A stretch of DNA of 64,000 bases from Clostridia bacterium (GTDB lineage: Bacteria; Bacillota; Clostridia; Oscillospirales; CAG-272), in NCBI GenBank assembly GCA_017455975.1, contig JAFTLK010000013.1:13362-77361 (forward strand). Reading direction: 5' to 3'. The notes under the pieces were generated by a model. The model was given only the letters and a program-made list of their open reading frames with translations. It did no database searches and was not told the DNA's origin. A program made the position numbers and the translations under genes. Position 1 is the first letter of the stretch. Every line of letters begins with the position of its first letter. Below are positions 4,289 to 55,761 of this stretch, in pieces.

Positions 4289-6631
4289 ATGCTGAAAAAC
4301 TGTTTTGACCTTTGCGGCACATGGACGATGTTCTATGCCGAAAACCGCAATGTAAAGAAAATCAAAGAAGCCATTACCACGACCGCCGATGCCAAGCGTC
4401 TGATCTATTCCTCCGTCGAGGGAACTGTCCCCGGCAATTTTGAGCTTGATCTGCACCGTGCAGGTCTGATCGGCGACCTGTACTTCGGCACCAATACGCT
4501 CGAGATGCAGAAGCTGGAAAACCTGCATCTGTGGTACTGCCGCACCTTTACCTATCACGGTACAGCGGATGAAAACACGATGCTCCGCTTTGAGGGCATT
4601 GATACCGTCGCGGAAATTTATCTGAACGGCAAGCTCTTGCAGAAAGTCTCCAATATGTTCTTAACCTATGAGATTCCCGTACCGGATCTCATCGACGGCG
4701 AAAACGACCTTGTTGTTCATATTCTTCCCGCGACCATCGCTGTCCGCGAGCATGCCGTACCCGTGTCTGCCAACGCGCTGAAGTATAACTACGAATCGCT
4801 CTATATCCGCAAGGCCGCATCGATGTACGGCTGGGATATCATGCCGCGCATTGTGTCCGCCGGCATCTGGAAGCCTGTTTCGCTGATTCAGAAGAAGCCC
4901 GACCGCATCGACGATGTGTTCATTTATCCGAACTGGCTCGGAAGTGACGTGACCAACCTCTGCGTCTTCTTCAATCTGACGATTGACAAGGATTTCCTGC
5001 ACGACTTCAAGATCCGTGTCCGCGGTGTCTGCGGCGATTCCACCTTTGAAGGCGAGCGCGAAATTCTGCATACCTCCCACCGCTTTGATATCCGCGTGGC
5101 CAATCCGAAGCTGTGGTGGCCGAAGAATGCCGGCGAGCAGAATCTGTACGACGTGACCGTTGAGCTGCTCTACTGCGGACAGGTCGTCGATACGCACACG
5201 ATGCGCACCGGTATCCGCACGGTCGAGCTGTCCCGCACCTCTACCACCGACAAGGACGGCAACGGCGATTTCTGCTTCATCATCAACGGCAAGCGCGTCT
5301 TTGCTATGGGTACCAACTGGGTTCCGCTCGATGCGTTCCATTCCAATGATGTGAACCGCATTCAGCCTGCCATCGACATGGCGGTCGATCTCGGTTGCAA
5401 TATCATCCGTCTTTGGGGCGGCAATGTCTACGAAAATCAGAAGTTCTTTGATCTGTGCGACGAGCACGGCATCATGGTCTGGCAGGACTTCGGCATGGGA
5501 TGTGCGGCGTATCCGCAGGAGCAGAAGTTCCTTGATATGCTCGCGCCCGAAATTGAATTTGTGGTCAAGCAGTGCAGAAACCATCCGTCACTCGTTCTGT
5601 GGGCAGGTGACAATGAATGTGACTTTGCGTTCGGCTGGGCAGGCACAAAGCGCGACCCCAACGACAATGTTATCACACGCAAGCTGATTCCCGAGCTGCT
5701 CCGCATCCACGATTTCACACGTCCGTATCTGCCGTCCTCTCCTTACGTGGACGATTATGCATACAAGACGGGCGAGCCGATCTCCGAGGATCACCTGTGG
5801 GGACCGCGTGACTACTTCAAGGGTGAGTATTATAAAAATACCGTCTGTCATTTTGCATCGGAAACCGGCTATCACGGCTGCCCGTCGCCCAAATCCCTTG
5901 AAAAGTTTATGACCAAAGAAACGCTGTGGCCGATCTTTGACGAAAACGGCATCCCCGGCAAGGAATGGCTCGTGCACGCGGCTTGTATGCGTGCCGATAT
6001 GTCCGACCCGTATTCCTACCGCATCGGACTGATGGCAAAACAGGTTCAGACCTTGTTTGGGGAGATGCCCGACAATCTCGACGACTTTGCCCTGATGAGC
6101 CAGATTTCGCAGGCGGAGGCAAAGAAGTACTTCATCGAGCGCTTCCGCATCACGCGCGGACGCCGCAACGGCATCATCTGGTGGAATCTCGTCGACGGCT
6201 GGCCGCAGATCACCGACGCGATTGTCGATTACAACTACTGCAAGAAGCTCGCTTATCACTACATCAAGCGCTCTCAGCAGCCCGTCATGCTTGCCTTTGA
6301 CGAGCCGGAGAGCGATACCGCAATGACGCTGTACGGCATCAACGATACGACAAAGGACGTTACCGTTTCCTACCGTGTCCGCAATATTACCGACGGTACG
6401 GTCGTTGCCAAGGCATCCGCGGCACTTTCGGCAGAAAAGAGCAATCGCCTTCTGACCATCGACATTGAAAAGGACGAGAAGAAGTTCTACGTCATGGAAT
6501 GGGAATACACCGACGGCGAAACTGTCACGCGCGGCAAAAACCACTTCCACACGAATCTGATCGATGTTGATTACAAGGCTTACAGGACTGCCATGGAGAC
6601 GGCAGGTATGCTGGAGATCGAGGGATTCTGA
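4289..6631 (+). CDS. glycoside hydrolase family 2, beta-mannosidase-like
   Basis: 780 aa. GH2-type blocks include WWPKNAGEQNLYDVTVEL, NGKRVFAMGTNWVPLDAF and IRLWGGNVYENQKFFDLCDEHGIMVWQDF. GAAAGGAA RBS. Confidence 0.8.
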   Translation: MLKNCFDLCGTWTMFYAENRNVKKIKEAITTTADAKRLIYSSVEGTVPGNFELDLHRAGLIGDLYFGTNTLEMQKLENLHLWYCRTFTYHGTADENTMLRFEGIDTVAEIYLNGKLLQKVSNMFLTYEIPVPDLIDGENDLVVHILPATIAVREHAVPVSANALKYNYESLYIRKAASMYGWDIMPRIVSAGIWKPVSLIQKKPDRIDDVFIYPNWLGSDVTNLCVFFNLTIDKDFLHDFKIRVRGVCGDSTFEGEREILHTSHRFDIRVANPKLWWPKNAGEQNLYDVTVELLYCGQVVDTHTMRTGIRTVELSRTSTTDKDGNGDFCFIINGKRVFAMGTNWVPLDAFHSNDVNRIQPAIDMAVDLGCNIIRLWGGNVYENQKFFDLCDEHGIMVWQDFGMGCAAYPQEQKFLDMLAPEIEFVVKQCRNHPSLVLWAGDNECDFAFGWAGTKRDPNDNVITRKLIPELLRIHDFTRPYLPSSPYVDDYAYKTGEPISEDHLWGPRDYFKGEYYKNTVCHFASETGYHGCPSPKSLEKFMTKETLWPIFDENGIPGKEWLVHAACMRADMSDPYSYRIGLMAKQVQTLFGEMPDNLDDFALMSQISQAEAKKYFIERFRITRGRRNGIIWWNLVDGWPQITDAIVDYNYCKKLAYHYIKRSQQPVMLAFDEPESDTAMTLYGINDTTKDVTVSYRVRNITDGTVVAKASAALSAEKSNRLLTIDIEKDEKKFYVMEWEYTDGETVTRGKNHFHTNLIDVDYKAYRTAMETAGMLEIEGF

Positions 6632-8672: not shown

Positions 8673-9743
8673 ATGACGAAACAGAAGACCTATGCAGAGC
8701 TCGATTGCTTCAATGCGATCGCGTGTCTGCTTGTGATCCTGATTCATGTGCTGTCCATCGGCATTACCTCGCTTGAGAAAACCTCCGTGCAGCTTGCTGT
8801 CATCTACCTGCCGTGGAAGCTGGCGGCTTATGTCGTGCCGGGCTTTCTGTTTACCGGGGCTGTCAAAATGGCACTCGGCTTTGATGACCGTGCGCTGACG
8901 CTGTCCGGATACGCAAAATACATCCGGCGGCGGATTCTGAAAATATATCTGCCGTATGTCCTGTGGGTCGGCATTTACTATCTGTATTTTCTGCGGATCG
9001 GCTGGGTCAAGCCGGGAATCGGCGTTTTTCTGCGGTATGTCTTTGTCGGGGATCTCTCCTCACCGTTTTACTATGTCGTAACGGTCATGCAGTTTTATCT
9101 GCTGATGCCGCTGTGGCGGTGGATGACGAAGCGGATTCCGTGGTTTGCGGCGATTCTGACCGCAGGCATCGTCACGCTCGGGATGCTGTATTCCGAGGGG
9201 ATCCTGTCGCAGATGGGAATTGCCTTTGCATACCGTGACCGCGTCTTTCCGTCGTATCTGATCTTCTGGGTAATCGGGCTGTATGCAGGAAAGTACTATG
9301 ACACCGTCCGTGAGGCGCTGAAACGGCATACCGCTTCTGTGTTTGCAATGCTGATTCCGGTTGCACTTTACGGCATCGGTATGCTGGTACAGCACGCAAA
9401 AGGCATCTGGCTGTTTGACGGCAATGTCATCAAGATGTTCTCCGACTGTATCACCATCTGCGTGATGCTCACACTCTGCATCCGCATTGCCGACGGGAAT
9501 TGTGCCGCGATCAGGAACCCGCTTGTGTGGATCTGCCGCGCATCGTTTACCGTTTATCTGTCGCACTGCCTGTTTCTGCAGCTCATCAGTGCGGAGATTG
9601 CCGAACACAGCATTACGGACATCGGCGTTCAGCTGATTCTGCGCGCGGCGGTCTGCTATACCGCACCGTTTGTGCTGTGGTACGGCTGGTACTGGGCAAA
9701 AAAGGGGATCCATATTCTTTGCAGGAAAAGAAAGGCGGCATAA
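8673..9743 (+). CDS. acyltransferase family 3 (AT3) integral membrane protein
   Basis: 356 aa, about 10 hydrophobic segments. The N-terminal DCFNAIACLLVILIHV resembles the AT3 conserved His region. Confidence 0.6.
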   Translation: MTKQKTYAELDCFNAIACLLVILIHVLSIGITSLEKTSVQLAVIYLPWKLAAYVVPGFLFTGAVKMALGFDDRALTLSGYAKYIRRRILKIYLPYVLWVGIYYLYFLRIGWVKPGIGVFLRYVFVGDLSSPFYYVVTVMQFYLLMPLWRWMTKRIPWFAAILTAGIVTLGMLYSEGILSQMGIAFAYRDRVFPSYLIFWVIGLYAGKYYDTVREALKRHTASVFAMLIPVALYGIGMLVQHAKGIWLFDGNVIKMFSDCITICVMLTLCIRIADGNCAAIRNPLVWICRASFTVYLSHCLFLQLISAEIAEHSITDIGVQLILRAAVCYTAPFVLWYGWYWAKKGIHILCRKRKAA

Positions 9744-9746
9744 GCT

Positions 9747-10370
9747 ATGCTGTATCACAATCTGATCTGGGACTTTGACGGAACGCTGTTTGACAGCTAT
9801 CCGCACATACAAGGGGCGTATCTGCAGGCACTTGCCGACTTTGGTCGGACGGCAGACCCCGACATTCTGATGGCGAAGCTGAAGATCAACTTCGGCGAGG
9901 CACACAAGTACATCGAGCCGTCGGACGAGCTGCGTGCACGGTTCACGCAGTATGAGCATGATATCGACTTTGCACCAAAAGCTGTCCTGTACGACGGCAT
10001 GAAGGAACTGCTCGCGGATACCCGTGCGGCTGGTGTGCGGCATTTTCTGTTCACGCACCGCAACAACCTTGCGCTGACGTACATGGAACGCGCGGGGATT
10101 CTCGGCTATTTTGATGGCTGGGTGACCTCCGACGATAAAGAACACTTTGCGCTCAAGCCCTCGCCTGCGTCCATTTTGTATCTGCTGGAGCACTACGGCA
10201 TCGACCCGCACGACTGCGCCATGATCGGCGACCGTGAGATCGATGTCGGTTCGGGCATTGCCGCGGGAACGAACGGGATTCTGTTTGATGAGTTTCATAA
10301 TCTCGGGGAGACCAAGGCACAGCACCGGGTGTATTCGGTGGAGGAGATGCGGGGGTTGTTGTTAAAATAA
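9747..10370 (+). CDS. HAD-superfamily phosphatase
   Basis: 207 aa. Motif I is LIWDFDGTLFDS; motif IV-like is MIGDREIDVGSGIAAG. Confidence 0.75.
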   Translation: MLYHNLIWDFDGTLFDSYPHIQGAYLQALADFGRTADPDILMAKLKINFGEAHKYIEPSDELRARFTQYEHDIDFAPKAVLYDGMKELLADTRAAGVRHFLFTHRNNLALTYMERAGILGYFDGWVTSDDKEHFALKPSPASILYLLEHYGIDPHDCAMIGDREIDVGSGIAAGTNGILFDEFHNLGETKAQHRVYSVEEMRGLLLK

Positions 10371-10375
10371 AAATA

Positions 10376-10416
10376 AACGGTACTGTTATCCTTACGGATG
10401 CAGTACCGTTTTTGTT
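10376..10416 (+). terminator. rho-independent terminator of the ROK-SIS-AT3-HAD operon
   Basis: Stem AACGGTACTG (10376-10385) / CAGTACCGTT (10401-10410) followed by TTTT. Confidence 0.75.
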
Positions 10417-10431
10417 GATTTGTAAAGATGT

Positions 10432-11059
10432 TATGTTGTTTTCACTCACGCGTGAATTGCAACTTGAGTATTTATGTACTCAATATCACGCTTGACGCTG
10501 GCAATCCACACTCACGCGTGAATTGCAACATACGAAACGGAATATTTGGGCGATAAAACAGGTACTGGCAATCCACACTCACGCGTGAATTGCAACCATC
10601 TCGTCAAGCAATTCGAGTGCATTTTTGTTGCTGGCAATCCACACTCACGCGTGAATTGCAACTTGTACATAATCATATAACTGATTATTAGCATAACTGG
10701 CAATCCACACTCACGCGTGAATTGCAACACGATCTCCGTGCATCACAGGGCAGCGACGAGTGCTGGCAATCCACACTCACGCGTGAATTGCAACGGCCGG
10801 AAGATGTGTTATAATGATAACAACCACCTGGCAATCCACACTCACGCGTGAATTGCAACAGCAAAGACCGCTAAAAAGACGGTTGAGGAGGTACTGGCAA
10901 TCCACACTCACGCGTGAATTGCAACAGCACACATTCAATATATTGTCAACATTGTTTGATCTGGCAATCCACACTCACGCGTGAATTGCAACTTTACCAC
11001 GGGCGCGGTTCGAGATATGCACGATGGCTGGCAATCCACACTCACGCGTGAATTGCAAC
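10432..11059 (-). CRISPR. CRISPR array: 9 identical 32-nt repeats plus 1 degenerate terminal repeat, 9 unique spacers of 33-35 nt
   Basis: Repeat on the + strand is CTGGCAATCCACACTCACGCGTGAATTGCAAC. Copies start at 10498, 10565, 10631, 10697, 10763, 10828, 10894, 10961 and 11028. The degenerate copy at 10432-10463 keeps only ...TCACTCACGCGTGAATTGCAAC. Within each repeat GCAAT can pair with ATTGC, and there is a TCAcgcgTGA core. The minus-strand orientation is inferred (see findings). Confidence 0.95.
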
Positions 11060-11307
11060 CGTGATACTGCGTTACAATTACGCTTATTTGGTTGTGTGGA
11101 GGCTCCGGTACTGCGATCCTTCTTTATTCCGATTGGAAAATCCCATCAAAAATACTACTGAAATCGGTTCCCGCGCCGTTTACTGTCGATATTCGATAAA
11201 ACGGATACCATATTGACAGTCGGGAGATGCCTGCTCCCGTTTTGCGATTGGAATTTTTCGTGCGAAAGGGTTGGTATTTTTCTGTGTACTTACGGTTCGC
11301 GCAGAAG
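11060..11307 (-). ncRNA. putative tracrRNA / leader region containing an anti-repeat (11071-11108)
   Basis: The + strand reads GTTACAATTACGC (11071-11083)...GTGTGGA (11094-11100) GGCTCCGG. This is a diverged inverted copy of the repeat, 11 nt from the last repeat. Extra hairpins at 11222-11238 and 11182-11192/11210-11220. No ORF. RNA ends are unknown. Confidence 0.45.
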
Positions 11308-12795
11308 TTACGCGACACCGAAACTGGATAAATGCGTTTTGTTTTCGCTCTTCAGGCGAGCAATTTCCATATCATGGAGTTGTTTGAATCGTTCGTAGGT
11401 TTGTTCGCAAAGGGTCTGATCCGGGGATTTTAAGTCGGTGCCTGCGTTCATCAGGAGAAATGCTGCATAAAGGTCGCGCTGAACGGTATCACCGTTTTCG
11501 AGATGTGTTGTTCTTTGACTGAGTTTTTTCTTGTGGTATTGCTTGCTGAGGTGGTCATACTGACTTGCTTTATATTCCCATTTGTCAACCTTATGAAGTC
11601 CTTCCATGCCGCTATTTTTTAACTTGGATTCCAAAATCAAAATCAAGGTGGCAGGCGCTTTGTTTGCAAGGGATTTTCCAAACCGTTTTTTGCGGTTGTA
11701 GCGTCCTTTTGCATTGACTGTGGTTTCTTTGGCGCGTTTCTGCAGGGCTTTGTATTCCATGGGTTCCACATAGATTTCGTTACCCATCTGCAGAATCTCA
11801 TTTGCCAATTCGTAATGCTGCAATTTTCGGATGTCCGCATTTTTGCGCTGTAATTGACGAACCTGCGCGGCGTACCGTTTGTAGTGATTGGAATACGTCC
11901 ATCGCAGTTTGATGCCTCGTTTGATGGTGCCGTCAGCATTGTAATTGTCGGGGTTGGTGCTTCTGCGGCTGGCATCCATTTTTCTCTGCAGATACAGCAT
12001 CCGCTTATGGTTGGTATTGACGCGGTCTGCAAGTTCATAGAGATGTACGCCGCGATCAGATACAATTGCAATACTTTGCGTACCGATGTCAATGCCGACA
12101 CGTCCTTCTTTGACCGTGTGTTTTTTCTTTACAACAGAATTGCCTGCTAAAGTGATCTGTAGATAGTATTTATATCTTGTTTTTACCCATTTTCTGACAA
12201 CACGATAATATTTGTGTTCCAATGAGAGCATTTCGCGTTCATAATCGGTTTGGGGATATGCAACTTTAATCGTTATATTGATAGGGTTCTTGCATTGCCC
12301 GCCGTTCCATGATAAGAGGTGTTCTTTATAGGACATCGAAGTCCCTGCTTTTTGATTGGCAAGGCTATCTAATGTACCGCGACGCTTAAAATGTACACTG
12401 TTTCCGTTTCCGAACAAATACTTATCAAAAGCGCGCCATACATCAGATGCGGTACGGTGGGCAATGTGGGTAGCGATATGTGCAACGAAGTGCTTCTGCA
12501 TTGTTGTAATATCATCTTTGAACGCAAATTCTGAAAAATGATTATCACGCAAAAGTTTGGTGCGTTTGTTATACAGCGGTTTGCGTTTATCTTTTGGAGT
12601 ATCCTGAATTAACTTATCAAGTTCGCGGTATTCCGGCGTTTGCTGTAGCCTGCGCAATTTCTTCAATTCAAAAGAAACGAGAGAATTGTACAGATGCTCC
12701 ATGATTTTGAAGCGTTTTTCAAGAATGTGTTCCTGCCACGGTTCTGTCAGCAAAGGAAGTGTCAGCACTGAACGGGGACCTTCTGATTTTGCCAT
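11308..12795 (-). CDS. TnpB/Cas12-like RuvC RNA-guided nuclease candidate (495 aa), CRISPR-adjacent
   Basis: AAAGGAGAG RBS 7 nt before the ATG at 12795 (MAKSEGPRSVLTLPLLTEPWQEHILEKRF...). RuvC-I is GRVGIDIGTQS (D236), RuvC-II is EIYVEPMEY (E344), RuvC-III is TVQRDLYAAFLL (D441). TnpB-like N-terminus. The track ORF (523 aa) starts further upstream, but that extension has no RBS. Confidence 0.7.
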   Translation of the reverse strand: MAKSEGPRSVLTLPLLTEPWQEHILEKRFKIMEHLYNSLVSFELKKLRRLQQTPEYRELDKLIQDTPKDKRKPLYNKRTKLLRDNHFSEFAFKDDITTMQKHFVAHIATHIAHRTASDVWRAFDKYLFGNGNSVHFKRRGTLDSLANQKAGTSMSYKEHLLSWNGGQCKNPINITIKVAYPQTDYEREMLSLEHKYYRVVRKWVKTRYKYYLQITLAGNSVVKKKHTVKEGRVGIDIGTQSIAIVSDRGVHLYELADRVNTNHKRMLYLQRKMDASRRSTNPDNYNADGTIKRGIKLRWTYSNHYKRYAAQVRQLQRKNADIRKLQHYELANEILQMGNEIYVEPMEYKALQKRAKETTVNAKGRYNRKKRFGKSLANKAPATLILILESKLKNSGMEGLHKVDKWEYKASQYDHLSKQYHKKKLSQRTTHLENGDTVQRDLYAAFLLMNAGTDLKSPDQTLCEQTYERFKQLHDMEIARLKSENKTHLSSFGVA

Positions 12796-12828
12796 CAATA
12801 TCTCTCCTTTCATTAAATATCTATGCTT

Positions 12829-12857
12829 ATTATAGCACGTTATGTAATGAATGTCAA
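12829..12857 (-). promoter_or_regulatory. sigma-70-type promoter of the nuclease gene
   Basis: On the minus strand: TTGACA (12857-12852), 17 nt, TATAAT (12834-12829). Exact consensus, about 27-nt 5' UTR. Confidence 0.7.
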
Positions 12858-12895
12858 GAAAAAGAACTGCCGAAAACATAACTGACGGCAGCTCT
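12858..12895 (-). terminator. rho-independent terminator of the cysteine desulfurase gene
   Basis: Stem AGAGCTGCCG / CGGCAGTTCT (12895-12886 / 12872-12863, one mismatch). It is followed on the minus strand by a TTTTT tract that runs into the -35 box of the nuclease promoter. Confidence 0.65.
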
Positions 12896-12916
12896 TCAAA
12901 TCAATGTTCGTTTTTC

Positions 12917-14101
12917 TCACCGCTTCATTCTCGCAAGCATCTTTATCCCCGTTTTCAGGGCATCGCAGAGGGCGGTGAGCTCCTCCTCGGTGTTGTCTGC
13001 GCACAGGCTGATGCGCAGCGTGGTGTCGGCCTCCGCCTCGGAAAGTCCGAAGCACAGAAGCGCACTCGAAATGCGTCCGCTCTGCGCCGAACATGCGGAG
13101 CCGGAGGAGACAGCAATGCCTTTTCCGGACAGGAAGTTCAGCATCGTTTCGCTCTTGATCTTCGGCATACGCAGGGAGACAATGTGCGGGGCGCGCGCCT
13201 CGGACTGCGGCACATTGACGGCAATGCCGGACAGCGCGGATTCTTCGGCGAGCATCGCGGGCAGACGGTCACGCAGTGCGGTCATGTGTGCGATGTCCGC
13301 ATCCATGGAGGCAGCCCCCTCGGCCGCCGCCGCACCGAAACCGGCGATTCCGGGCAGATTTTCGGTTCCCGAACGGAAGCCGCCCTCCTGTCCGCCGCCG
13401 AAAATGATCGGGGAGACCGCGCGGCGCTTGCACATGTACGGCGAGACGTACAGCGCACCGACGCCCTTCGGACCGTGGATCTTATGCGCCGAAACGGTGA
13501 CAAGATCCGCGCCGAGCGAGGTCGGAGTAAAGGGGATCTTCAGATACCCCTGCACCGCATCGGTATGCACGATGCAGTCGGGATTGACGGATTTTGCATA
13601 ATCGGAAATGGCGCGGATGTCATTGACGGCACCCGTTTCGTTGTTGACGAGCATGACTGTGACAAGGAACGTATCGCGCGTCATTTCGCGGCGGAACTGT
13701 TCCATGTCAAACACGCCGTGTTTTGTCGGAATATAAGCCGCACGGAAGCCCTCCGCCTCCAGTGCTTCCACGGTGCGCAGAACGGCGGGGTGCTCCGAAT
13801 CCGAGGTGATGATCTTGCCGCCGGCAAGCGCCCGTTTGGCATGGGCCGTGCCGGTAATGGCGAGGTTGTCGGCCTCTGTACCCGATGCGGTAAAGATCAG
13901 ATTTTCATCCTTTCCGCCGCGGATGCCGAGGGAGGAGAGTACCTGCTCGCGGGCACGCTTCAATACTGCATGTGCGGCAGTGCCCATTGTATGGCGCGAG
14001 GAGGGATTGCCCCAGATCTCGTCCATGACGGAAAGCATCGCCGCTCTTGCCGCAGGGCACAGGGCGGTCGTTGCGCTGTTGTCAAAATAAACGGTCTGCA
14101 T
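12917..14101 (-). CDS. nifS: cysteine desulfurase (class V aminotransferase, NifS/IscS-like)
   Basis: 394 aa. MQTVYFDNSATT N-terminus, PLP-lysine motif SAHKIHGPKGVGALY, C-terminal SSGSACS active-site Cys loop. Confidence 0.85.
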   Translation of the reverse strand: MQTVYFDNSATTALCPAARAAMLSVMDEIWGNPSSRHTMGTAAHAVLKRAREQVLSSLGIRGGKDENLIFTASGTEADNLAITGTAHAKRALAGGKIITSDSEHPAVLRTVEALEAEGFRAAYIPTKHGVFDMEQFRREMTRDTFLVTVMLVNNETGAVNDIRAISDYAKSVNPDCIVHTDAVQGYLKIPFTPTSLGADLVTVSAHKIHGPKGVGALYVSPYMCKRRAVSPIIFGGGQEGGFRSGTENLPGIAGFGAAAAEGAASMDADIAHMTALRDRLPAMLAEESALSGIAVNVPQSEARAPHIVSLRMPKIKSETMLNFLSGKGIAVSSGSACSAQSGRISSALLCFGLSEAEADTTLRISLCADNTEEELTALCDALKTGIKMLARMKR

Positions 14102-14113
14102 GTTTTTTCTCGA

Positions 14114-14692
14114 TCAGCGGAAATACAGATTTGCAAGGATGGCATTGACATCCTCAAGGTTGGATTCATACGCTTCTGCCGTGGAGGTGTAGGTGATGAT
14201 GTACATCGTAGCGCCGCGCAGGCAGAGCACCTGCATCCACTGGTACTTGACGCCGCCGACCGTTGCGGTATAACGGTACTTCATCGCGTCGGTATGACGG
14301 GTGGTATCCTCATAAGCCGAACCGACGACCACGTCGGAGGGCTCAGGGTCAACCATTGCGAAGTCTGCAAAGGTCGCCGCAAATTCTTCTGCGAACATAT
14401 CCCAGTATGCCTCAATGGAGGTGATCTCCGCCGTCAGCTCATTTGCCGTGACGGTGACGGAGGAGCGCGCCGTATCCTCGGCATATGCGCTGGTCATGCC
14501 GACCGTGGTTTCCACAAGCCAGCTTGCCGGAACGATCAGATCGTAGTCGCCCGCCTCCCCGGCAATGGCCTGCATATCGGATGGAATGGCGATGCCCGCC
14601 TCCGTGACCGACGGAGAACAGGAAACGACGGACAGCGATACGAGGATCACTGTGAGCAGCAGAGAAAGCATTCTTGTAATTTTCATAATCAT
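14114..14692 (-). CDS. hypothetical lipoprotein
   Basis: Signal peptide plus lipobox: MIMKITRMLSLLLTVILVSLSVVSC. No recognisable domain. The start could be 14692 or 14686. Confidence 0.55.
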   Translation of the reverse strand: MIMKITRMLSLLLTVILVSLSVVSCSPSVTEAGIAIPSDMQAIAGEAGDYDLIVPASWLVETTVGMTSAYAEDTARSSVTVTANELTAEITSIEAYWDMFAEEFAATFADFAMVDPEPSDVVVGSAYEDTTRHTDAMKYRYTATVGGVKYQWMQVLCLRGATMYIITYTSTAEAYESNLEDVNAILANLYFR

Positions 14693-14775
14693 TCGGTTTC
14701 CTTCACGAAAATAGTATTGTAACATATATTGTACCGCGATTTTTGCGCAAATTCAATGGGGATTTGTAAATTTTA

Positions 14776-35586: not shown

Positions 35587-35632
35587 CCTACTTTTTCTTG
35601 AAAGCCCTACTTTTTCTTGAAAGAAAAAGTAG

Positions 35633-35882
35633 GCAAAAAGAACTTTTTTCGTCGGATATTTATTGGCTGGATTGTCATGTTATACCACGAAACAAGTTGA
35701 TATTCTGCACTTCACCAGAAACAAAGCAAAAAGAACTTTTTTCGTCGGCTTTTTCTTGATTTTATTTTCGCGTTTTCCCACGAAACAGGTTGATATTCTG
35801 CATTTTACCAAAAAACAGGCAAAAAGAACTTTTTTCGTCGGGTATTTCTTGATTATATTTTCACGTTTTCCCACGAAACAGG
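35633..35882. repeat. 93-bp tandem repeat, about 2.7 copies
   Basis: GCAAAAAGAACTTTTTTCGTCGG starts at 35633, 35726 and 35819. Units share ...CCACGAAACA(A/G)GTTGATATTCTGCA... . The third copy is truncated. Confidence 0.85.
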
Positions 35883-50079: not shown

Positions 50080-53000
50080 TCAGACGACGGGAACGGTCAC
50101 GATGACGCTGCTGCCGTAGCTGACGTAGGTGGGGATCGGCCAGATCACGCGGGCACCGGCGGGCGCCTGGGATCTGATTTCGGATGCCGGAATGACGGCA
50201 TAGCCGGCTTTGGTCTGGACACGGGTGATGACCACGGTGTCAAGCTTTCTGCCGAACAGGTTCATGTAGACAACACGGAGGGTTGCGACACGGCCGATCT
50301 GAACGGTGACGGTTTCGCTCTCGCCGCAGGCGACGATCGCGTCGGTGACGCTGTCAGCATCGACAAACGCATATCTTGCGGGCATGGAAGCCGCGCCGAG
50401 GATGTCGGATGCGGAGAAGGTCATATCGGTGCCTGTGACGCCGTTTGCCGTGAGCGAACCGGAGGAGATCACGCGGCCGGTGTAGTCGACGAAGCGGACA
50501 TTCAGTTCAGCGTCTGCGTAGGTGATGACGGGTTCTTCGGGAACGCCTGCGATGGAGGAGAGGACATTCTCGATGTCTGCCTGCGTCAGCGGAACAAACG
50601 CCGCGTTCGGGTCGTCACAGATCTTCAGGTCGGTGACGGAGAGGAGGCCTTTGGTGACACGAATAATGACATCATATTCCTTTGCATCCGTTGCTGTTCC
50701 GTCAGCGTTTGTCAGCTTGTCAGCGATCTTGTAGAACATATCAACAGACGTAGACAGGCTTGCGGGAGCAACTGGGGTGCCATCAACGGTCAGTTCGAAT
50801 TCCGCAGAACCGATCGGGGATTTCAGACCGAGCTGCATGACACGGTTGGTCTTGACTTTGAATGTCAATGTCTGACCGGGGTAGAGATACAGTTCGTTCT
50901 TGGGGCCGTTTTTCAGAAGATCAGCGGCTGTATTGTCGTCCAGTTCTGTGTTTTCATCCAGAAGAACAGCGGATGTCTGACTCTGTCCTTCGACAGTAGA
51001 AATCGCTTTGTAAACCTGTTCAGAGGTTGCACCGCTGACACCAACAGCGCTCAGAACCATATCGCGAATCTGGTAGAAACTGGGATTATCTTCCAGATCT
51101 TCTACATAAATGCTGCTGTCTTTGATGGTGTTGATGATACGGACACCGTCGATCTGAATCGGGTTGTTCGTTTCATTACTTGCCGATCTCTTGATCGTAA
51201 CGGTATAAGTACCGTAGGGAAGAGCCTTTTCGGAAATGAACGGCAGGCTGTAATAGGTACCGGACTGCTGACTTGTAGCATCAGTCGTGCCTGTGCTCAG
51301 TTTGGTGTCGATCATGTAGATCTTATTCACCTTTTCGGCGTTATCTGCATTCGCCTGGCTCAATACGGAGACAATACCGGTAGAACCGTTGCTGTTGCCG
51401 TAGAGTTCGAAGCCTGTACCGGTGAAGGTAAAGGATGCGGTTGCGCCTGCGGTTGTGGTGTATGCATAGGTTCCGTTGGAACCGATGGCATCATTCTCTT
51501 GGGTATACGCAAAATCATAACCGTAGTTGCCATTCTTTCCACCGAGTACAGCGGTTGTCTGCGTCTTGGTGGGAGCGGTGGTATGACCTTTCCAACTGCC
51601 TTCGTATTGGAGGAACGATTCTTCGTAGTAGACAGTGGTGGCGGGAGTTATACCGACATTAGTTGTTGATGTTGTACCTGCAACGGTCAAGGTAATTGAA
51701 AGGACATCCAGATTCTGTAAAATCTTTGTCGGAACATAAGTGAATGTTTTAGTAGTAGAATTATAACTGACAGTACCATAACGTGCGGAGTGATTACCGA
51801 CATTATCGACAGTACCAGTATTAGTTACAATATCACTCAGCTTAAATGTAACCGGCAGGCCAAAGTCAACAACAAGATTCGGTTTGAGAATTTGAGTGTT
51901 GATATTATAATACAGATAAAGTATTGTTTTATCTTCGGAAATGACCGAACCCGTGTAGGAGTAAAGTTCGCTTGAATACTTACCTACAGCTTCGGGGACT
52001 TTGGTTAAGTCGGTCTGGAATTTATCTGTCTGTCCATAAAAATTCGTGATGCCACAACCAGATACATTGATACGGCCAGCATTTCCGGAGAACGCAGAAG
52101 GTGTAGGTGTAATATTTTCAAATGTTACATTGTCAGCGACCTGAATTGAATATGTGTAGAGTTCATCGCCGAACTTTTCATCATAATATACAACAGAAAG
52201 TGAATCCTGTTTTTCAACAGCCTTAACATAAATTCGAACAAGAATAGCTTCCTTATTCTCATCCCACATCAGGTTATCATAAGGATCTTCAGAACTCGGA
52301 TTTTTTGCATTATTATATATTGTAACTTCTCTTGTATAATCACCTTCCCAGACGGTTTTTTCATTTCTATCCCAAGTGAGATTTGTGACATTAACGCCCG
52401 AAGTGGAACTTTGCATGGTAGCAGTAACACTACCGGTCTCTGCAGTAACCTTATAAATGTCGAACTCTTCGAGACCGCTGAATTTATATGTACCGATACC
52501 TCTGCCGTCTGACCAATAACCAAATACGAGTGTTTTATCTTTAAGATTGGCAGCCGTAGTATCAACCGGGTTTGTAGTACCACTTTCATAAACAATTTGA
52601 ATTGAGATGGAACAATAGTTATTTACATCCATCCAATCCGAATTGGGGGTATTATCTCCTTTTTTACCCCAGTCTGCTGCATTAATATGTAATTCTGTTG
52701 TAAGATTTTCGTTCTTAATATCAACAATTTCCATATAGTATGCAACTAACTGCATACGGCTTCTTTCTGCATATGTTGTATTGTTGCTACTGTCAACATA
52801 TTTTGCTGATACTGTACTGGTATCAACCAATACCCAATCTGTATTTGAAAGAACTTGCCAATTGCCATTCCAATAACGGATTTTTTGTACAAGAGTACCG
52901 CTATTAGTATCGTCATCACCAGGGCCGTTTGTTTGATGTTCAGTTGCACTAGAGGAATCATTTTCTTTCAGAACATCCAGAAGCCTAACCTGCCAGTATT

Positions 53001-55761
53001 CGATACTACGTTCATTACGAATAATCGTAGAGGGGATAAGGTCAGAGAAAGCAATACCGTTTTCAGTATGTACATCCTGTGCCTTTATTTCGAGATTGTT
53101 TAACGTTGTATTGGGATCTGTGACTTGTTGGTTAGTAATCCAATACTCAACCGTCAACGGAGCAACACTGCTCAAATTTTCTTCTGTTTCTGTAACAGTT
53201 ACAGTATACTCTTTTACCGTAGCCGGAGTAATAGCAAGGGTTGTATCTTCAACAATATAGAATTTGTTGTTTGCATTGAAGCTTTTAACAGTAACACTTG
53301 TATCTTTTTCGGATACAGGACGGGTTTCTGTCTTAATCGGTGTATCGTTGCCTGTTACAACATATTTGATTGTAATCGTAACAGCCTTTTCAAGTGCATT
53401 CTTTGCAGTTTCAAGAGCATTAACTGCGGCTTTCAGCTCATTAAGTGCTGTATTTGCAGCAGTTTCGCTGGTATACGAAGCACCCTCAACGGTGGTGAAC
53501 TTATTTTCCGCAGCTTTCAGCGCGGATTCATATGCAGTCCAACTTGCATCTGTGTAGTTGTCATTTTCAACAGTCAAAGCTGCGATGCGGCTTTCTTGCA
53601 GGGAGGCATCAACTGTATATGTAGAGGTTCCGGGGGTATATTCATACAAGATAACACTTTGAGAAGAAGAGTTACTTCCTCCCCAAACGCCGTCGTCTTT
53701 TTTATATACTACATAAGTGTAATTTGCGTAGATAGTATATGCGTTATTACTGGAGCTAATAGTTAAATCTATCGCATCTTCTGATAAGGATAAATTGTAT
53801 TTGCGGGGGTAAGTGCTCGTTCTGTTGGGGTAAAGATAATATCCATTGTTGGATAAATATCGGTAGGTAGTAAAAACAGATCTTGAACTTGAATATGTCC
53901 ATAGACTATCTTGTACATCTGAAGCAGGAATTGCCTTAGTTCCATTTATATCGACGTTTGTACTGGAAATGGAACCATTATTGTTTGTTATAGCGACACC
54001 TTGAGTATCATTTAGTTTATAAACAATTAAATATTGGCTATTATTTGTTAATGAGGATGCTGTATATTGGTCGTAACTATCAGGAGTTCCACCGTTAGTC
54101 GAAATACTATCTTTTAATTCCTCAGCTGCCGTCTCCAATTCATAAAGACCACCAACGGAGAAGTGCGGCATGACAAATTCATACATGCCGTTGGCAACAT
54201 TACCGATAATCGTTTCGATGGTGTTGTCAGCATTGACAACAAATGCGCGTACCTTTGCGGTGTCCCAACCCTCGGGAATGGGAAGTGCTACGGTTGCTTC
54301 ACCGGTGTACTTACCATTTGCCGTTGCGGGTGTCAGATCCCATGCTTTGACATTCTTTGCGCCATCAATCGCAGTGGGAGCGGACGTCTCGGTTACCGTG
54401 ATCGCGGTCAGACCGGGAGCAGTGACAGAAATACCGTTATCGGTCAGAGTAACATTTTCCGGTTCTTCGGGCGTAACGGGAACATCGGGTTCTTCCGGAT
54501 CAACAACGTTGATCGTGCCGTCGGCATTGAAGCCGCCTGCAACGATGGAATCTACTTCGTAGTCATTGGAATCCTGCATGCGGGCAGCAATGACACGCAT
54601 GATGGGACGGATGTATTTTGCTACTTCGGTTTCCGTTTCTGCACCGGGATAGTCAGCCCAGACACAGAAAACAGAACCTGCAGGGTCTGATACTGTGCTG
54701 CCCATAAAAGCAGTATTGGAGAAACCCTCTGCAGCAGTGTGATATCCGTCAGCATGTGTTGTACCGGTTCCGGGAGTAAATGTATCATTTACGCCAAGAA
54801 TATAATAATAATCACCATTGGTGTTGTACATGGGGTGACCGAGTCCGGCCATGGTCGAGGCGGATGCGGACTTATATGCAGTTGAACCGGAACCCCAACC
54901 GGAAGACCAGAACGAAATCAGGATGTCCTTATCAAACGCATACGATGTATTGTTTTGGAAGTAAATACCGTCATTGAACGCCATGGTTTTCATACCGGCT
55001 GCTTTGATGATGGTGTTCAGTTCATTGACATAATCAACGAACAGCGGGTACTTTCCGCTGGAAAGCAGATGACCAAAGCCCATGGAGCCGCTGCTATAAT
55101 TATCATTTGCGTATTCGTCTGCGCCGATATTGAAAATCGAACAGCCCTTGTTCGCAAAATAAGAAATATACTTCTGCAGCAGTTCTTTCATGAATGCGAC
55201 CGCAGTGGAGTCGTCCAGATCGATCGTGCTTGCAGAGCCGTTATAACCCGGTGTCATGCCCAGAGAGGTCATAGCAGTGATCATCGTATACATATGACCG
55301 GGGTTATTGAACAACGGGATAATTTCGATGCCTGTTGTATTGGCATGCGCAATGATCTCATCCATTTCACTTTGGGTGAGTTCATTCAGTTCGGTTGTAT
55401 AAGTCTTTTTTGCATTATACGCAATATTGCCGTTATGTACCGCTGCGGTGACATCTGCATCGGAGTAAGAACCGACTGTCATATCATCCAGCAGGAAGCG
55501 CAGACCGTCATTACCGAACGCGAGCTGCAGATGTGTAAATCCGGCAGCCTTCATTTCGGTAATCAGCGCCTTGATCCAATCCACGGTATAATACTTACGT
55601 CCGCAGTCCAGATGCAGGATGCGTTGAAAGTCGTTGTCAACGGCTGTCGTTTGTACATCGGCAGTACCCGCCGTGTCATCCGCGAAAACCGTCATCGGTA
55701 CGATGCTGAACATCATGCACAGTACCATGAACATTGCCAGGGTTCGCTTTAGCATTTTCAT
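50080..55761 (-). CDS. 1893-aa secreted multidomain GH20 beta-N-acetylhexosaminidase / lacto-N-biosidase-like protein
   Basis: Signal peptide MKMLKRTLAMFMVLCMMFSIVPMTVFA. GH20 blocks ILHLDCGRKYY, IPLFNNPGHM and FNIGADEY. Long Ser/Thr/Asn/Tyr-rich C-terminal domains. No sortase motif seen. Confidence 0.8.
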   Translation of the reverse strand: MKMLKRTLAMFMVLCMMFSIVPMTVFADDTAGTADVQTTAVDNDFQRILHLDCGRKYYTVDWIKALITEMKAAGFTHLQLAFGNDGLRFLLDDMTVGSYSDADVTAAVHNGNIAYNAKKTYTTELNELTQSEMDEIIAHANTTGIEIIPLFNNPGHMYTMITAMTSLGMTPGYNGSASTIDLDDSTAVAFMKELLQKYISYFANKGCSIFNIGADEYANDNYSSGSMGFGHLLSSGKYPLFVDYVNELNTIIKAAGMKTMAFNDGIYFQNNTSYAFDKDILISFWSSGWGSGSTAYKSASASTMAGLGHPMYNTNGDYYYILGVNDTFTPGTGTTHADGYHTAAEGFSNTAFMGSTVSDPAGSVFCVWADYPGAETETEVAKYIRPIMRVIAARMQDSNDYEVDSIVAGGFNADGTINVVDPEEPDVPVTPEEPENVTLTDNGISVTAPGLTAITVTETSAPTAIDGAKNVKAWDLTPATANGKYTGEATVALPIPEGWDTAKVRAFVVNADNTIETIIGNVANGMYEFVMPHFSVGGLYELETAAEELKDSISTNGGTPDSYDQYTASSLTNNSQYLIVYKLNDTQGVAITNNNGSISSTNVDINGTKAIPASDVQDSLWTYSSSRSVFTTYRYLSNNGYYLYPNRTSTYPRKYNLSLSEDAIDLTISSSNNAYTIYANYTYVVYKKDDGVWGGSNSSSQSVILYEYTPGTSTYTVDASLQESRIAALTVENDNYTDASWTAYESALKAAENKFTTVEGASYTSETAANTALNELKAAVNALETAKNALEKAVTITIKYVVTGNDTPIKTETRPVSEKDTSVTVKSFNANNKFYIVEDTTLAITPATVKEYTVTVTETEENLSSVAPLTVEYWITNQQVTDPNTTLNNLEIKAQDVHTENGIAFSDLIPSTIIRNERSIEYWQVRLLDVLKENDSSSATEHQTNGPGDDDTNSGTLVQKIRYWNGNWQVLSNTDWVLVDTSTVSAKYVDSSNNTTYAERSRMQLVAYYMEIVDIKNENLTTELHINAADWGKKGDNTPNSDWMDVNNYCSISIQIVYESGTTNPVDTTAANLKDKTLVFGYWSDGRGIGTYKFSGLEEFDIYKVTAETGSVTATMQSSTSGVNVTNLTWDRNEKTVWEGDYTREVTIYNNAKNPSSEDPYDNLMWDENKEAILVRIYVKAVEKQDSLSVVYYDEKFGDELYTYSIQVADNVTFENITPTPSAFSGNAGRINVSGCGITNFYGQTDKFQTDLTKVPEAVGKYSSELYSYTGSVISEDKTILYLYYNINTQILKPNLVVDFGLPVTFKLSDIVTNTGTVDNVGNHSARYGTVSYNSTTKTFTYVPTKILQNLDVLSITLTVAGTTSTTNVGITPATTVYYEESFLQYEGSWKGHTTAPTKTQTTAVLGGKNGNYGYDFAYTQENDAIGSNGTYAYTTTAGATASFTFTGTGFELYGNSNGSTGIVSVLSQANADNAEKVNKIYMIDTKLSTGTTDATSQQSGTYYSLPFISEKALPYGTYTVTIKRSASNETNNPIQIDGVRIINTIKDSSIYVEDLEDNPSFYQIRDMVLSAVGVSGATSEQVYKAISTVEGQSQTSAVLLDENTELDDNTAADLLKNGPKNELYLYPGQTLTFKVKTNRVMQLGLKSPIGSAEFELTVDGTPVAPASLSTSVDMFYKIADKLTNADGTATDAKEYDVIIRVTKGLLSVTDLKICDDPNAAFVPLTQADIENVLSSIAGVPEEPVITYADAELNVRFVDYTGRVISSGSLTANGVTGTDMTFSASDILGAASMPARYAFVDADSVTDAIVACGESETVTVQIGRVATLRVVYMNLFGRKLDTVVITRVQTKAGYAVIPASEIRSQAPAGARVIWPIPTYVSYGSSVIVTVPVV

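Follow-up and report, generated by a model that had tools for sequence, protein, structure and literature searches.

A candidate tracrRNA of predicted omegaRNA ancestry between a TnpB-like nuclease gene and a CRISPR array in a Clostridia bacterium

Introduction

Between the gene for a TnpB-like RuvC nuclease and a short CRISPR array on contig JAFTLK010000013.1 of a Clostridia bacterium lie 248 nucleotides (nt; positions 11060-11307), and the question raised by this locus is whether they encode an RNA that pairs with the repeats and, if so, how such an RNA could have arisen. The whole 64-kb stretch of that contig that was analyzed is called the window here, and positions are given in its numbering. 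An original prediction, made from the letters alone, had placed in the region an anti-repeat of the trans-activating CRISPR RNA (tracrRNA) type, transcribed from the minus strand. The reading reached in the present analysis, to which a probability of about 0.85 is given, is that the minus strand of 11060-11307 would encode the tracrRNA for a miniature CRISPR system of type V, in which a TnpB of the IS200/IS605 type has been domesticated as the nuclease. The region would thus specify a non-coding RNA with an anti-repeat whose predicted pairing with the repeat is backed by covariation and by matched duplicated cassettes; expression of this scaffold RNA, and a need for it in CRISPR RNA (crRNA) maturation and in cleavage, are likewise predicted.

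Results

An inverted repeat copy beside the array

The features of the locus are collected in Table 1. The array repeat reads CTGGCAATCCACACTCACGCGTGAATTGCAAC on the plus strand, with GTTGCAATTCACGCGTGAGTGTGGATTGCCAG as its reverse complement, and beginning 11 nt past the repeat at 11028-11059 the plus strand contains GTTACAATTACGC, a 10-nt gap and GTGTGGA, which together form a diverged inverted copy of the repeat, in position and sequence as originally predicted. The anti-repeat comprises two blocks that can pair with the repeat. The seven nucleotides of block A do so perfectly, as had been claimed, and block B forms 12 Watson-Crick pairs and one G-U pair around one bulged C; the predicted pairing of this diverged, bulged block therefore stands, but its length is 13 positions and not 11. 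The accompanying argument, that the single substituted position makes a G-U pair if both RNAs come from the minus strand but an A-C mismatch if they come from the plus strand, is correct. Interpretation of 11071-11100 as a degenerate direct repeat was rejected, as the inverted match (12/13 plus 7/7) is much better and the spacing is off the array period.

Co-folding of anti-repeat and repeat gives a duplex energy of -26.9 kcal/mol, compared with -17.7 ± 3.2 kcal/mol for shuffles of the same 60 nt, of which 6 in 1000 reach the observed value. This check, suggested with the original prediction, is thus favorable in that the energy lies beyond that of most local shuffles, but not in that the same energy is common elsewhere in the window. 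In this single sequence the anti-repeat is only moderately beyond chance, and since its duplex energy is matched by many other stretches the case rests on comparison across loci.

Table 1. Positions of the features of the nuclease-scaffold-array locus in the window
Feature	Position	Strand	Description
Inverted repeat flanked by T/A runs	10365..10421	.	just past the degenerate repeat of the array; predicted bidirectional terminator-like hairpin
CRISPR array	10432..11059	-	ten 32-nt repeats (GUUGCAAUUCACGCGUGAGUGUGGAUUGCCAG) and nine spacers, each 33-35 nt long
Linker, anti-repeat to first repeat	11060..11070	-	11 nt
Anti-repeat block B	11071..11083	-	GCGUAAUUGUAAC; 13 bp with repeat nt 1-14, bulged C10
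Anti-repeat block A	11094..11100	-	UCCACAC; perfect 7-bp pairing with repeat nt 19-25 (GUGUGGA)
Structured scaffold (putative tracrRNA body)	11093..11302	-	210 nt; covariance model R1, 129.7 bits
TnpB-like RuvC nuclease gene	11308..12795	-	495 amino acids; open reading frame spans 11308-12879
Promoter-like site	12829..12857	-	TTGACA, 17 nt, TG-TATAAT; 12/12 sigma-70 consensus matches; predicted

Covariation between anti-repeat and repeat

Genome and metagenome collections were scanned and yielded 160 loci; 25 non-redundant ones were used to compare block A with the repeat of the same locus. Block A begins 7 nt after AGUAC (AGTAC) in 20 of these 25 loci. Combined with its own repeat it pairs in 160 of 175 cells, whereas with permuted repeats the count is 139 ± 3 and does not exceed 149 in any of 2000 permutations. 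In alignment A2, 80% of cells are paired and all 10 pairs show double changes, compared with 27-50% of cells in slid controls, and the covariation score is 0.558 versus 0.290 for shuffles, with none of 500 shuffles scoring as high. The exchanges can be read directly from pairs of block A and repeat such as UCCACAC/GUGUGGA, CAUACGC/GCGUAUG, CCUACAU/AUGUAGG and CUUACACAUAU/AUAUGUGUAAG. The covariation whose search in orthologous loci had been recommended is thus present, and across these loci the predicted anti-repeat pairing is far beyond chance. For block B the effect appears at group level: own repeats average -9.98 kcal/mol, permuted ones -7.78 ± 0.43 kcal/mol, and none of 5000 permutations is as low. 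Both blocks of the originally proposed two-block pairing therefore pair, but the longer one, missing in some orthologues, is not the universal contact; these comparisons point instead to the 7-bp block A as the universal, ancestral contact and to the 13-bp block B as a lineage-variable extension of the duplex.

Gene conversion from the 5' arm of the repeat was considered as a source of the block A covariation and rejected by reading the sequences, because block A departs from the 5' arm exactly where that arm makes wobble pairs (UCCACAC versus UUCACGC in the window; CUUACACAUAU versus CUUAUAUAUAU in locus L111).

Locus L111 (4809-5330) contains two scaffold-plus-array cassettes with differing repeats, and each block A matches the repeat of its own array; L091 (4902-5300) likewise has a second cassette. 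In both loci the first array is succeeded by a second complete scaffold, which lacks a nuclease gene and leads into a second array that has a repeat variant of its own. The tracrRNA-plus-array cassettes therefore appear to duplicate as units.

These data bear on the possibility that no tracrRNA is needed, each repeat forming an 11-bp hairpin that guides the nuclease alone as a Cas12a-type crRNA does, with the 248-nt region a mere 3' untranslated region or leader. The minus-strand repeat does fold on itself, at -16.0 kcal/mol (-8.2 kcal/mol for the plus-strand repeat), and among 25 orthologous repeats the internal hairpin is pairable in 84% of cells, compared with 23-54% in slid controls. Covariation within this hairpin is, however, at the level of shuffles (262 of 500), while that between block A and the repeat stands above them (0 of 500); in addition, the region specifies a conserved RNA structure related to the omegaRNA (obligate mobile element-guided activity RNA) scaffold that TnpB requires, as described below, and duplicated arrays carry their own matched scaffold copy. 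A tracrRNA-free system is accordingly considered improbable.

The nuclease and its relatives

The start codon of the nuclease gene is most likely the ATG at 12795, which follows a ribosome-binding site, GGAGAG, downstream of the promoter-like site. Residues D236, E344 and D441 are invariant in the nuclease alignment. Sequence databases recognize the protein poorly: NCBIfam guided_TnpB gives a weak match of 64 bits, its cut-off being 100, Pfam returned nothing meaningful, and searches of PDB sequences with the single protein and with two profiles found no TnpB, Cas12f or TranC, the sole match being RdCas12n (9j09, E = 0.013). The AlphaFold2 model (pLDDT 89) has as its top Foldseek matches ISFba1 and ISDra2 TnpB, Cas12p, AsCas12f, Fanzor2 and LaTranC, all at 12-16% identity. 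The nuclease and all 45 aligned relatives are without the four zinc-finger cysteines that are usual in TnpB between RuvC-II and RuvC-III; the corresponding segment (residues about 405-445) reads ASQYDH...NGDxVQRD, with S411, Q412 and H415 invariant. The protein accessions are not mentioned in the literature searched.

Presence of an array divides the relatives sharply. All 41 full-length relatives with at least 48% identity (window counted), from gut and rumen Clostridia, have a same-strand array 191-316 nt past the stop codon, and none of the 87 with less than 48% identity has one. The array-less relatives (29-47% identity) belong to multicopy 1.9-kb elements that carry tnpB only, without tnpA, and their proteins are of similar length (~490-510 amino acids), so that the effector is nested among transposon-borne TnpBs without added protein length. 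The nuclease represents a separate TnpB lineage, with transposon-borne TnpBs as its nearest relatives.

The array-less elements are bounded on the left by a conserved TTAC and on the right by the omegaRNA end, ...TCAG (L016, L017, L023, L061; L120, L121, L123). TTAC is likely to be the transposon-adjacent motif of these elements, unlike the TTC of the CRISPR-linked clade.

Direction of transcription

When block A is read on the nuclease-sense (minus) strand, its non-Watson-Crick positions comprise 23 G-U but only 3 A-C pairs, which fixes the nuclease-sense strand. The distal repeat of the array, at 10432-10463, is degenerate, and in the minus-strand reading its first 21 nt are retained and the remainder lost, as had been noted originally. 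Spacer gain is polarized: closely related strains share distal spacers and differ at the scaffold-proximal (nuclease-side) end. Together with the stronger fold of the minus-strand repeat, the promoter-like site on that strand and the 5'-TTC flank found for orthologues (see below), these observations agree with the prediction of minus-strand transcription, and the array and scaffold are taken to be read from that strand, all evidence being concordant. The proposed order of nuclease gene, structured RNA, anti-repeat and array holds in 41/41 loci, and a consensus scan from the nuclease stop codon to the array detected no terminator-like site, as the original prediction had also stated.

An alternative is that array and partner RNA are transcribed from the plus strand, opposite in sense to the nuclease gene; in its favor, the plus-strand co-fold too has a negative binding energy (-7.1 kcal/mol), and one plus-strand promoter-like site lies inside the array (10788-10815). 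That only 3 G-U pairs form on the plus strand compared with 23 on the minus strand, that the 5'-TTC flank fits a nuclease-sense crRNA only, and that the degenerate repeat and spacer polarity put the leader on the nuclease side make this arrangement hardly credible.

Scaffold, anti-repeat, repeat and degenerate last repeat are shared with a syntenic strain (L161), whose nuclease is 88% identical to that of the window, but its 15 spacers are all different. A similar turnover is seen among near-identical strains of human-gut Ruminococcoides (L013, L094-L101, L106, L109, L110), whose spacer sets are almost wholly different, only distal ones being common. Spacers change in this way although cas1 and cas2 are absent near the array, and spacer adaptation presumably uses the machinery of another system.

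A motif, GTGCA(G/T)TTTTGC(C/A/T), is conserved in the final 12-15 nt before the first repeat in orthologous loci (e.g. L085, L086, L088, L091, L093, L108). It is distinct from the anti-repeat, and the window has just ...GCAGTATCACG at that place. The motif might represent either a U-tract at the 3' end of the tracrRNA or a leader signal used in spacer integration.

A conserved scaffold and its relation to omegaRNA

Folded as an alignment, 23 orthologous regions give several helices in which compensatory changes occur. Covariance model R1 (210 positions), built from these regions with the window among the training sequences, places a scaffold that starts 6 nt past the nuclease stop codon, finds one copy only within the window, and also detects two loci absent from the training set (L107 and L001). 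Over 32 R1-matched sequences the paired cells amount to 90.4%, and double (compensatory) changes are seen in 24 of 32 pairs, with slid controls at no more than 49%. The local helices join 11296-11302 with 11260-11266, 11234-11239 with 11221-11226, and 11210-11219 with 11183-11192, and long-range helices are formed around GGGAA (11168-11172), AGAAGG (11118-11123) and AGUAC (11108-11112). The two hairpins named in the original prediction thus exist, at 11221-11239 and at 11183-11192 with 11210-11219, and both are conserved scaffold helices. No Rfam family matches positions 9000-14000 of the window (E-value mode).

The origin of this scaffold is suggested by comparison with the array-less relatives, in which the tnpB stop codon is followed by a small hairpin, a CTATC...GATAG helix, TTAGGGAA and AGAAG...AGTAC, and then by 7 nt, CCCCAC, a loop, GTGGGAG and TTTCAG, the point at which element copies diverge exactly. 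In the CRISPR-linked clade the same order of motifs is kept as far as AGTAC and is followed by 7 nt and a C-rich block, and it is the repeat that ends in a matching G-rich block plus TTGCCAG. The shared motif order, with the C-rich block in the scaffold and the G-rich block in the repeat, thus implies that block A and the 3' end of the repeat would be the two strands of the last omegaRNA hairpin: block A its 5' strand, and the repeat 3' end (GUGUGGA+UUGCCAG) its other strand plus the guide-adjacent tail. Model R1 also matches the omegaRNA region immediately after the tnpB stop codon in transposon loci L145 (E = 9e-6), L132 (0.011) and L126 (0.048).

In locus L007 a further scaffold copy (6279-6480) lies after the arrays; it is joined to one repeat 3' end only (...TGTATGTTGCCAG), beyond which the sequence is unique. 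The arrangement resembles an omegaRNA-like module with one guide, placed next to the CRISPR array.

Targets of the orthologous arrays

A pool of 159 spacers from orthologous arrays was used as the query for targets, and matches were found in phage contigs from human faecal (gut) samples. Protospacers were obtained for eight distinct spacers (L085, L086, L090, L105), each with TTC directly 5' in the nuclease-sense orientation; two of the eight overlap on one phage region, where each begins after its own TTC. The nucleases of these loci are 54-55% identical to that of the window. The protospacer-adjacent motif (PAM), shown for the orthologues only, is 5'-TTC and adjoins the repeat-derived handle, as in Cas12/TnpB geometry.

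Spacers 1, 2 and 4 of the single L085 array target one phage lineage (MT835997, L170; MT835739, L171). In one phage variant CTC replaces TTC beside the spacer-2 protospacer, which looks like an escape-type change of the PAM.

Evidence against a functional tracrRNA

Several observations weigh against the reading of the region as a tracrRNA. In the window, whose G+C content is 54%, 113 of 4214 60-nt segments elsewhere (2.7%) equal the energy of the anti-repeat duplex, and uniqueness of the anti-repeat by energy was rejected, many G+C-rich segments pairing equally well with the repeat. The self-fold of the repeat, at -16 kcal/mol, rivals the tracrRNA pairing. Block B pairs strongly in only about half of the loci; several orthologues have a weak one or none. 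Of about 35 transposon loci searched with R1, only 3 show a significant link to omegaRNA, and an nhmmer search of the window with a profile of 76 omegaRNAs, which uses sequence only, gave no match; homology is not demonstrable from sequence alone, and a structure-aware search was therefore needed. Finally, the nine spacers of the window have no matches in INPHARED (all nine searched) or in IMG/VR (exact 24-mers of spacers 1-3 only).

The unmatched spacers of the window are also what would be expected if the region were the decaying omegaRNA relic of a TnpB transposon that had landed by an unrelated or orphan array, the complementarity being a functionless leftover; no cas1, cas2 or cas4 is found near the locus, and NCBI annotates the nuclease as 'transposase', both in keeping with such a relic. 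A relic would not, however, account for an architecture kept in 41/41 loci over 48-100% protein identity, for compensatory changes in scaffold and anti-repeat, for a repeat whose own 3' end is an omegaRNA 3' end, for turnover of spacer content between strains, or for orthologous-array spacers that target phages beside a uniform PAM, and the relic explanation is judged very improbable.

Surroundings of the locus

The neighboring genes (GH2, ROK, SIS, acyltransferase, HAD, aminotransferase, radical SAM, RecG) are of housekeeping type, and the flanks are syntenic in L161. Within 10432-12860 the G+C content is 43% for the nuclease gene, 45% for the scaffold and 47% for the array, lower than the 54% of the 64-kb window, which suggests that the locus was acquired horizontally.

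Several further features of the window were recorded. A 623-amino-acid open reading frame on the plus strand (12851-14722) has no family match and is probably spurious; opposite it lie minus-strand genes at 12917-14101 (class-V aminotransferase) and 14114-14725, as in L161. A tandem repeat at 35633-35882 (93-nt unit, 2.7 copies, 85% matches) is located between the genes for prolyl-tRNA synthetase and a methyltransferase, with a 19-nt unit in 1.9 copies at 35587-35623. The minus-strand reading frame 50080-55761 encodes 1893 amino acids with an N-terminal GH20 glycosidase domain.

Discussion

Proposed mechanism

The predicted tracrRNA can be placed in a scheme of guide formation as follows. One transcript would probably start at the promoter-like site, as judged from consensus sequences, and pass through nuclease gene, scaffold, anti-repeat and array to end at the terminator-like hairpin (10421-10365). 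Past the stop codon this RNA is expected to fold into the scaffold, whose conservation and covariation are described above. The 3' end of the scaffold would then pair with every repeat, UCCACAC:GUGUGGA rebuilding the terminal omegaRNA stem in a pairing demonstrated by covariation, while block B (GCGUAAUUGUAAC) would clamp the repeat's 5' part. The final 7 nt of the repeat (UUGCCAG) would replace the guide-adjacent tail of omegaRNA (UUUCAG), a homology supported by motif position and by the covariance model and presumed to extend to three-dimensional equivalence; given this replacement, the spacer would occupy the position of the transposon-flank guide of TnpB. An RNase would presumably cut the duplex into units, and the resulting ribonucleoprotein would cleave DNA carrying 5'-TTC beside the spacer match by means of RuvC residues D236, E344 and D441. 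Because the anti-repeat is only 11 nt from the first repeat, the unprocessed transcript might itself be a ready-made single guide for spacer 1, with the 11-nt linker as a hairpin loop.

Comparison with known systems

A single RuvC effector with the TnpB/Cas12 fold beside a CRISPR array, and a 5' PAM on the non-target strand in orthologues, are characteristics of type V systems. The original prediction had likened the arrangement to types V-K and V-F; the layout is indeed the same as an analogy, but the nuclease belongs to neither. With Cas12f (V-F) it shares a miniature RuvC effector, a tracrRNA between effector gene and array with the anti-repeat at its 3' end, and a T-rich 5' PAM, but in structural alignments identity is only ~13%. 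A zinc finger and action as a dimer are further features of Cas12f. Assignment to this family was rejected since no Cas12f model of Pfam or NCBIfam matches, the PADLOC Cas12f profile reaches 39 bits over the RuvC part only, and no Cas12f was matched among PDB sequences; Cas12f is an independent TnpB capture relative to the present system. Cas12k (V-K) systems, too, have their tracrRNA between the gene for the effector and a short array, but Cas12k has an inactive RuvC and is located in a Tn7-like transposon, and it is ruled out here by the invariant D236, E344 and D441 and by the housekeeping neighbors. The sequence matches, weak throughout, are best with Cas12n (V-U4), which is tracrRNA-dependent and TnpB-like; that to PADLOC Cas12u4 (42 bits), like that to RdCas12n (9j09), covers the RuvC half only. 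The tracrRNA of Cas12n overlaps an unstructured C-terminal tail of the reading frame (bioRxiv 10.64898/2026.03.27.714800), in contrast to the start 6 nt past the stop codon seen here.

ISDra2 TnpB (PDB 8h1j) has the same fold, and the transposon relatives of the nuclease itself (at most 47% identity; Bacillaceae, Clostridia) share the scaffold motifs after the gene, the terminal stem and the guide-adjacent tail. TnpB-omegaRNA elements differ in having one fixed guide derived from the flank, whereas here the terminal hairpin would have been opened and its 3' strand repeated with exchangeable spacers; they also differ in their flank motif, TTAC rather than TTC. A mobile IS200/IS605 TnpB-omegaRNA element was rejected as a description of the locus, in which an array replaces the single guide, which is syntenic between strains, and which contributes the single scaffold copy of the window.

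The closest parallels are with CRISPR-linked TnpBs. Altae-Tran et al. (2023; PMC10691335) described 40 branches of TnpB linked to CRISPR (V-U6 to V-U45), most of which have their array downstream and no adaptation genes, and noted branches of TnpB that lack the zinc finger. Jin et al. (Cell 2025, doi 10.1016/j.cell.2025.09.004), as cited in PMC13565253, named TranC and proposed the splitting of omegaRNA into tracrRNA and crRNA as the founding event. TranC systems have in common with the present locus a TnpB-sized effector, a downstream array and no adaptation genes, repeat lengths within 32-36 nt, gut Clostridia hosts and a 5'-TTC PAM, and also a guide that corresponds to omegaRNA (or right-end element RNA, reRNA) split into tracrRNA and crRNA, an equivalence that for the window is presumed. 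The PAM of LaTranC/TranC11a is 5'-TTC (bioRxiv 10.1101/2025.09.28.678669). LaTranC (PDB 9jfq, 9jfo) is nevertheless only 16% identical in structural alignment, and the present clade differs from TranC in having lost the zinc-finger cysteines; LaTranC was not detected by sequence-profile search, so the present clade is another lineage. OsTranC3, with a TTC/TTTN PAM, repeats of 32-36 nt and hosts in Ruminococcaceae or Oscillospiraceae (bioRxiv 10.64898/2026.03.27.714800), provides a lead: TranC clade 3 of the same work, compared by description only, fits in its 32-nt repeats, TTC PAM and Oscillospiraceae-type hosts. The system would function like published TranC and V-U type V systems; by sequence it is not of the LaTranC lineage.

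A broader proposal is advanced tentatively and must be regarded as doubtful: that the zinc-finger-less clade is an independent TnpB-to-CRISPR domestication outside the published TranC and V-U catalogues, in which the repeat hairpin, as a cis copy of the omegaRNA stem, competes with a better-matched tracrRNA strand as a built-in switch, cassettes duplicate and co-evolve as units, and TTC-linked spacers are acquired without local adaptation genes.

Implications

Systems of this kind were already described in 2023-2025, and the principle of splitting has been published for other lineages. Compact nucleases of such a kind are sought for genome-editing delivery, and the locus offers a testable guide design for a 495-amino-acid nuclease with a TTC PAM, in which the scaffold (11302-11071) would be joined to the 3' part of the repeat and a spacer. 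At the level of sequence, the locus illustrates how a transposon guide RNA may become a CRISPR guide: the last omegaRNA hairpin would have been opened, with one strand staying on the scaffold and the other multiplied in the array.

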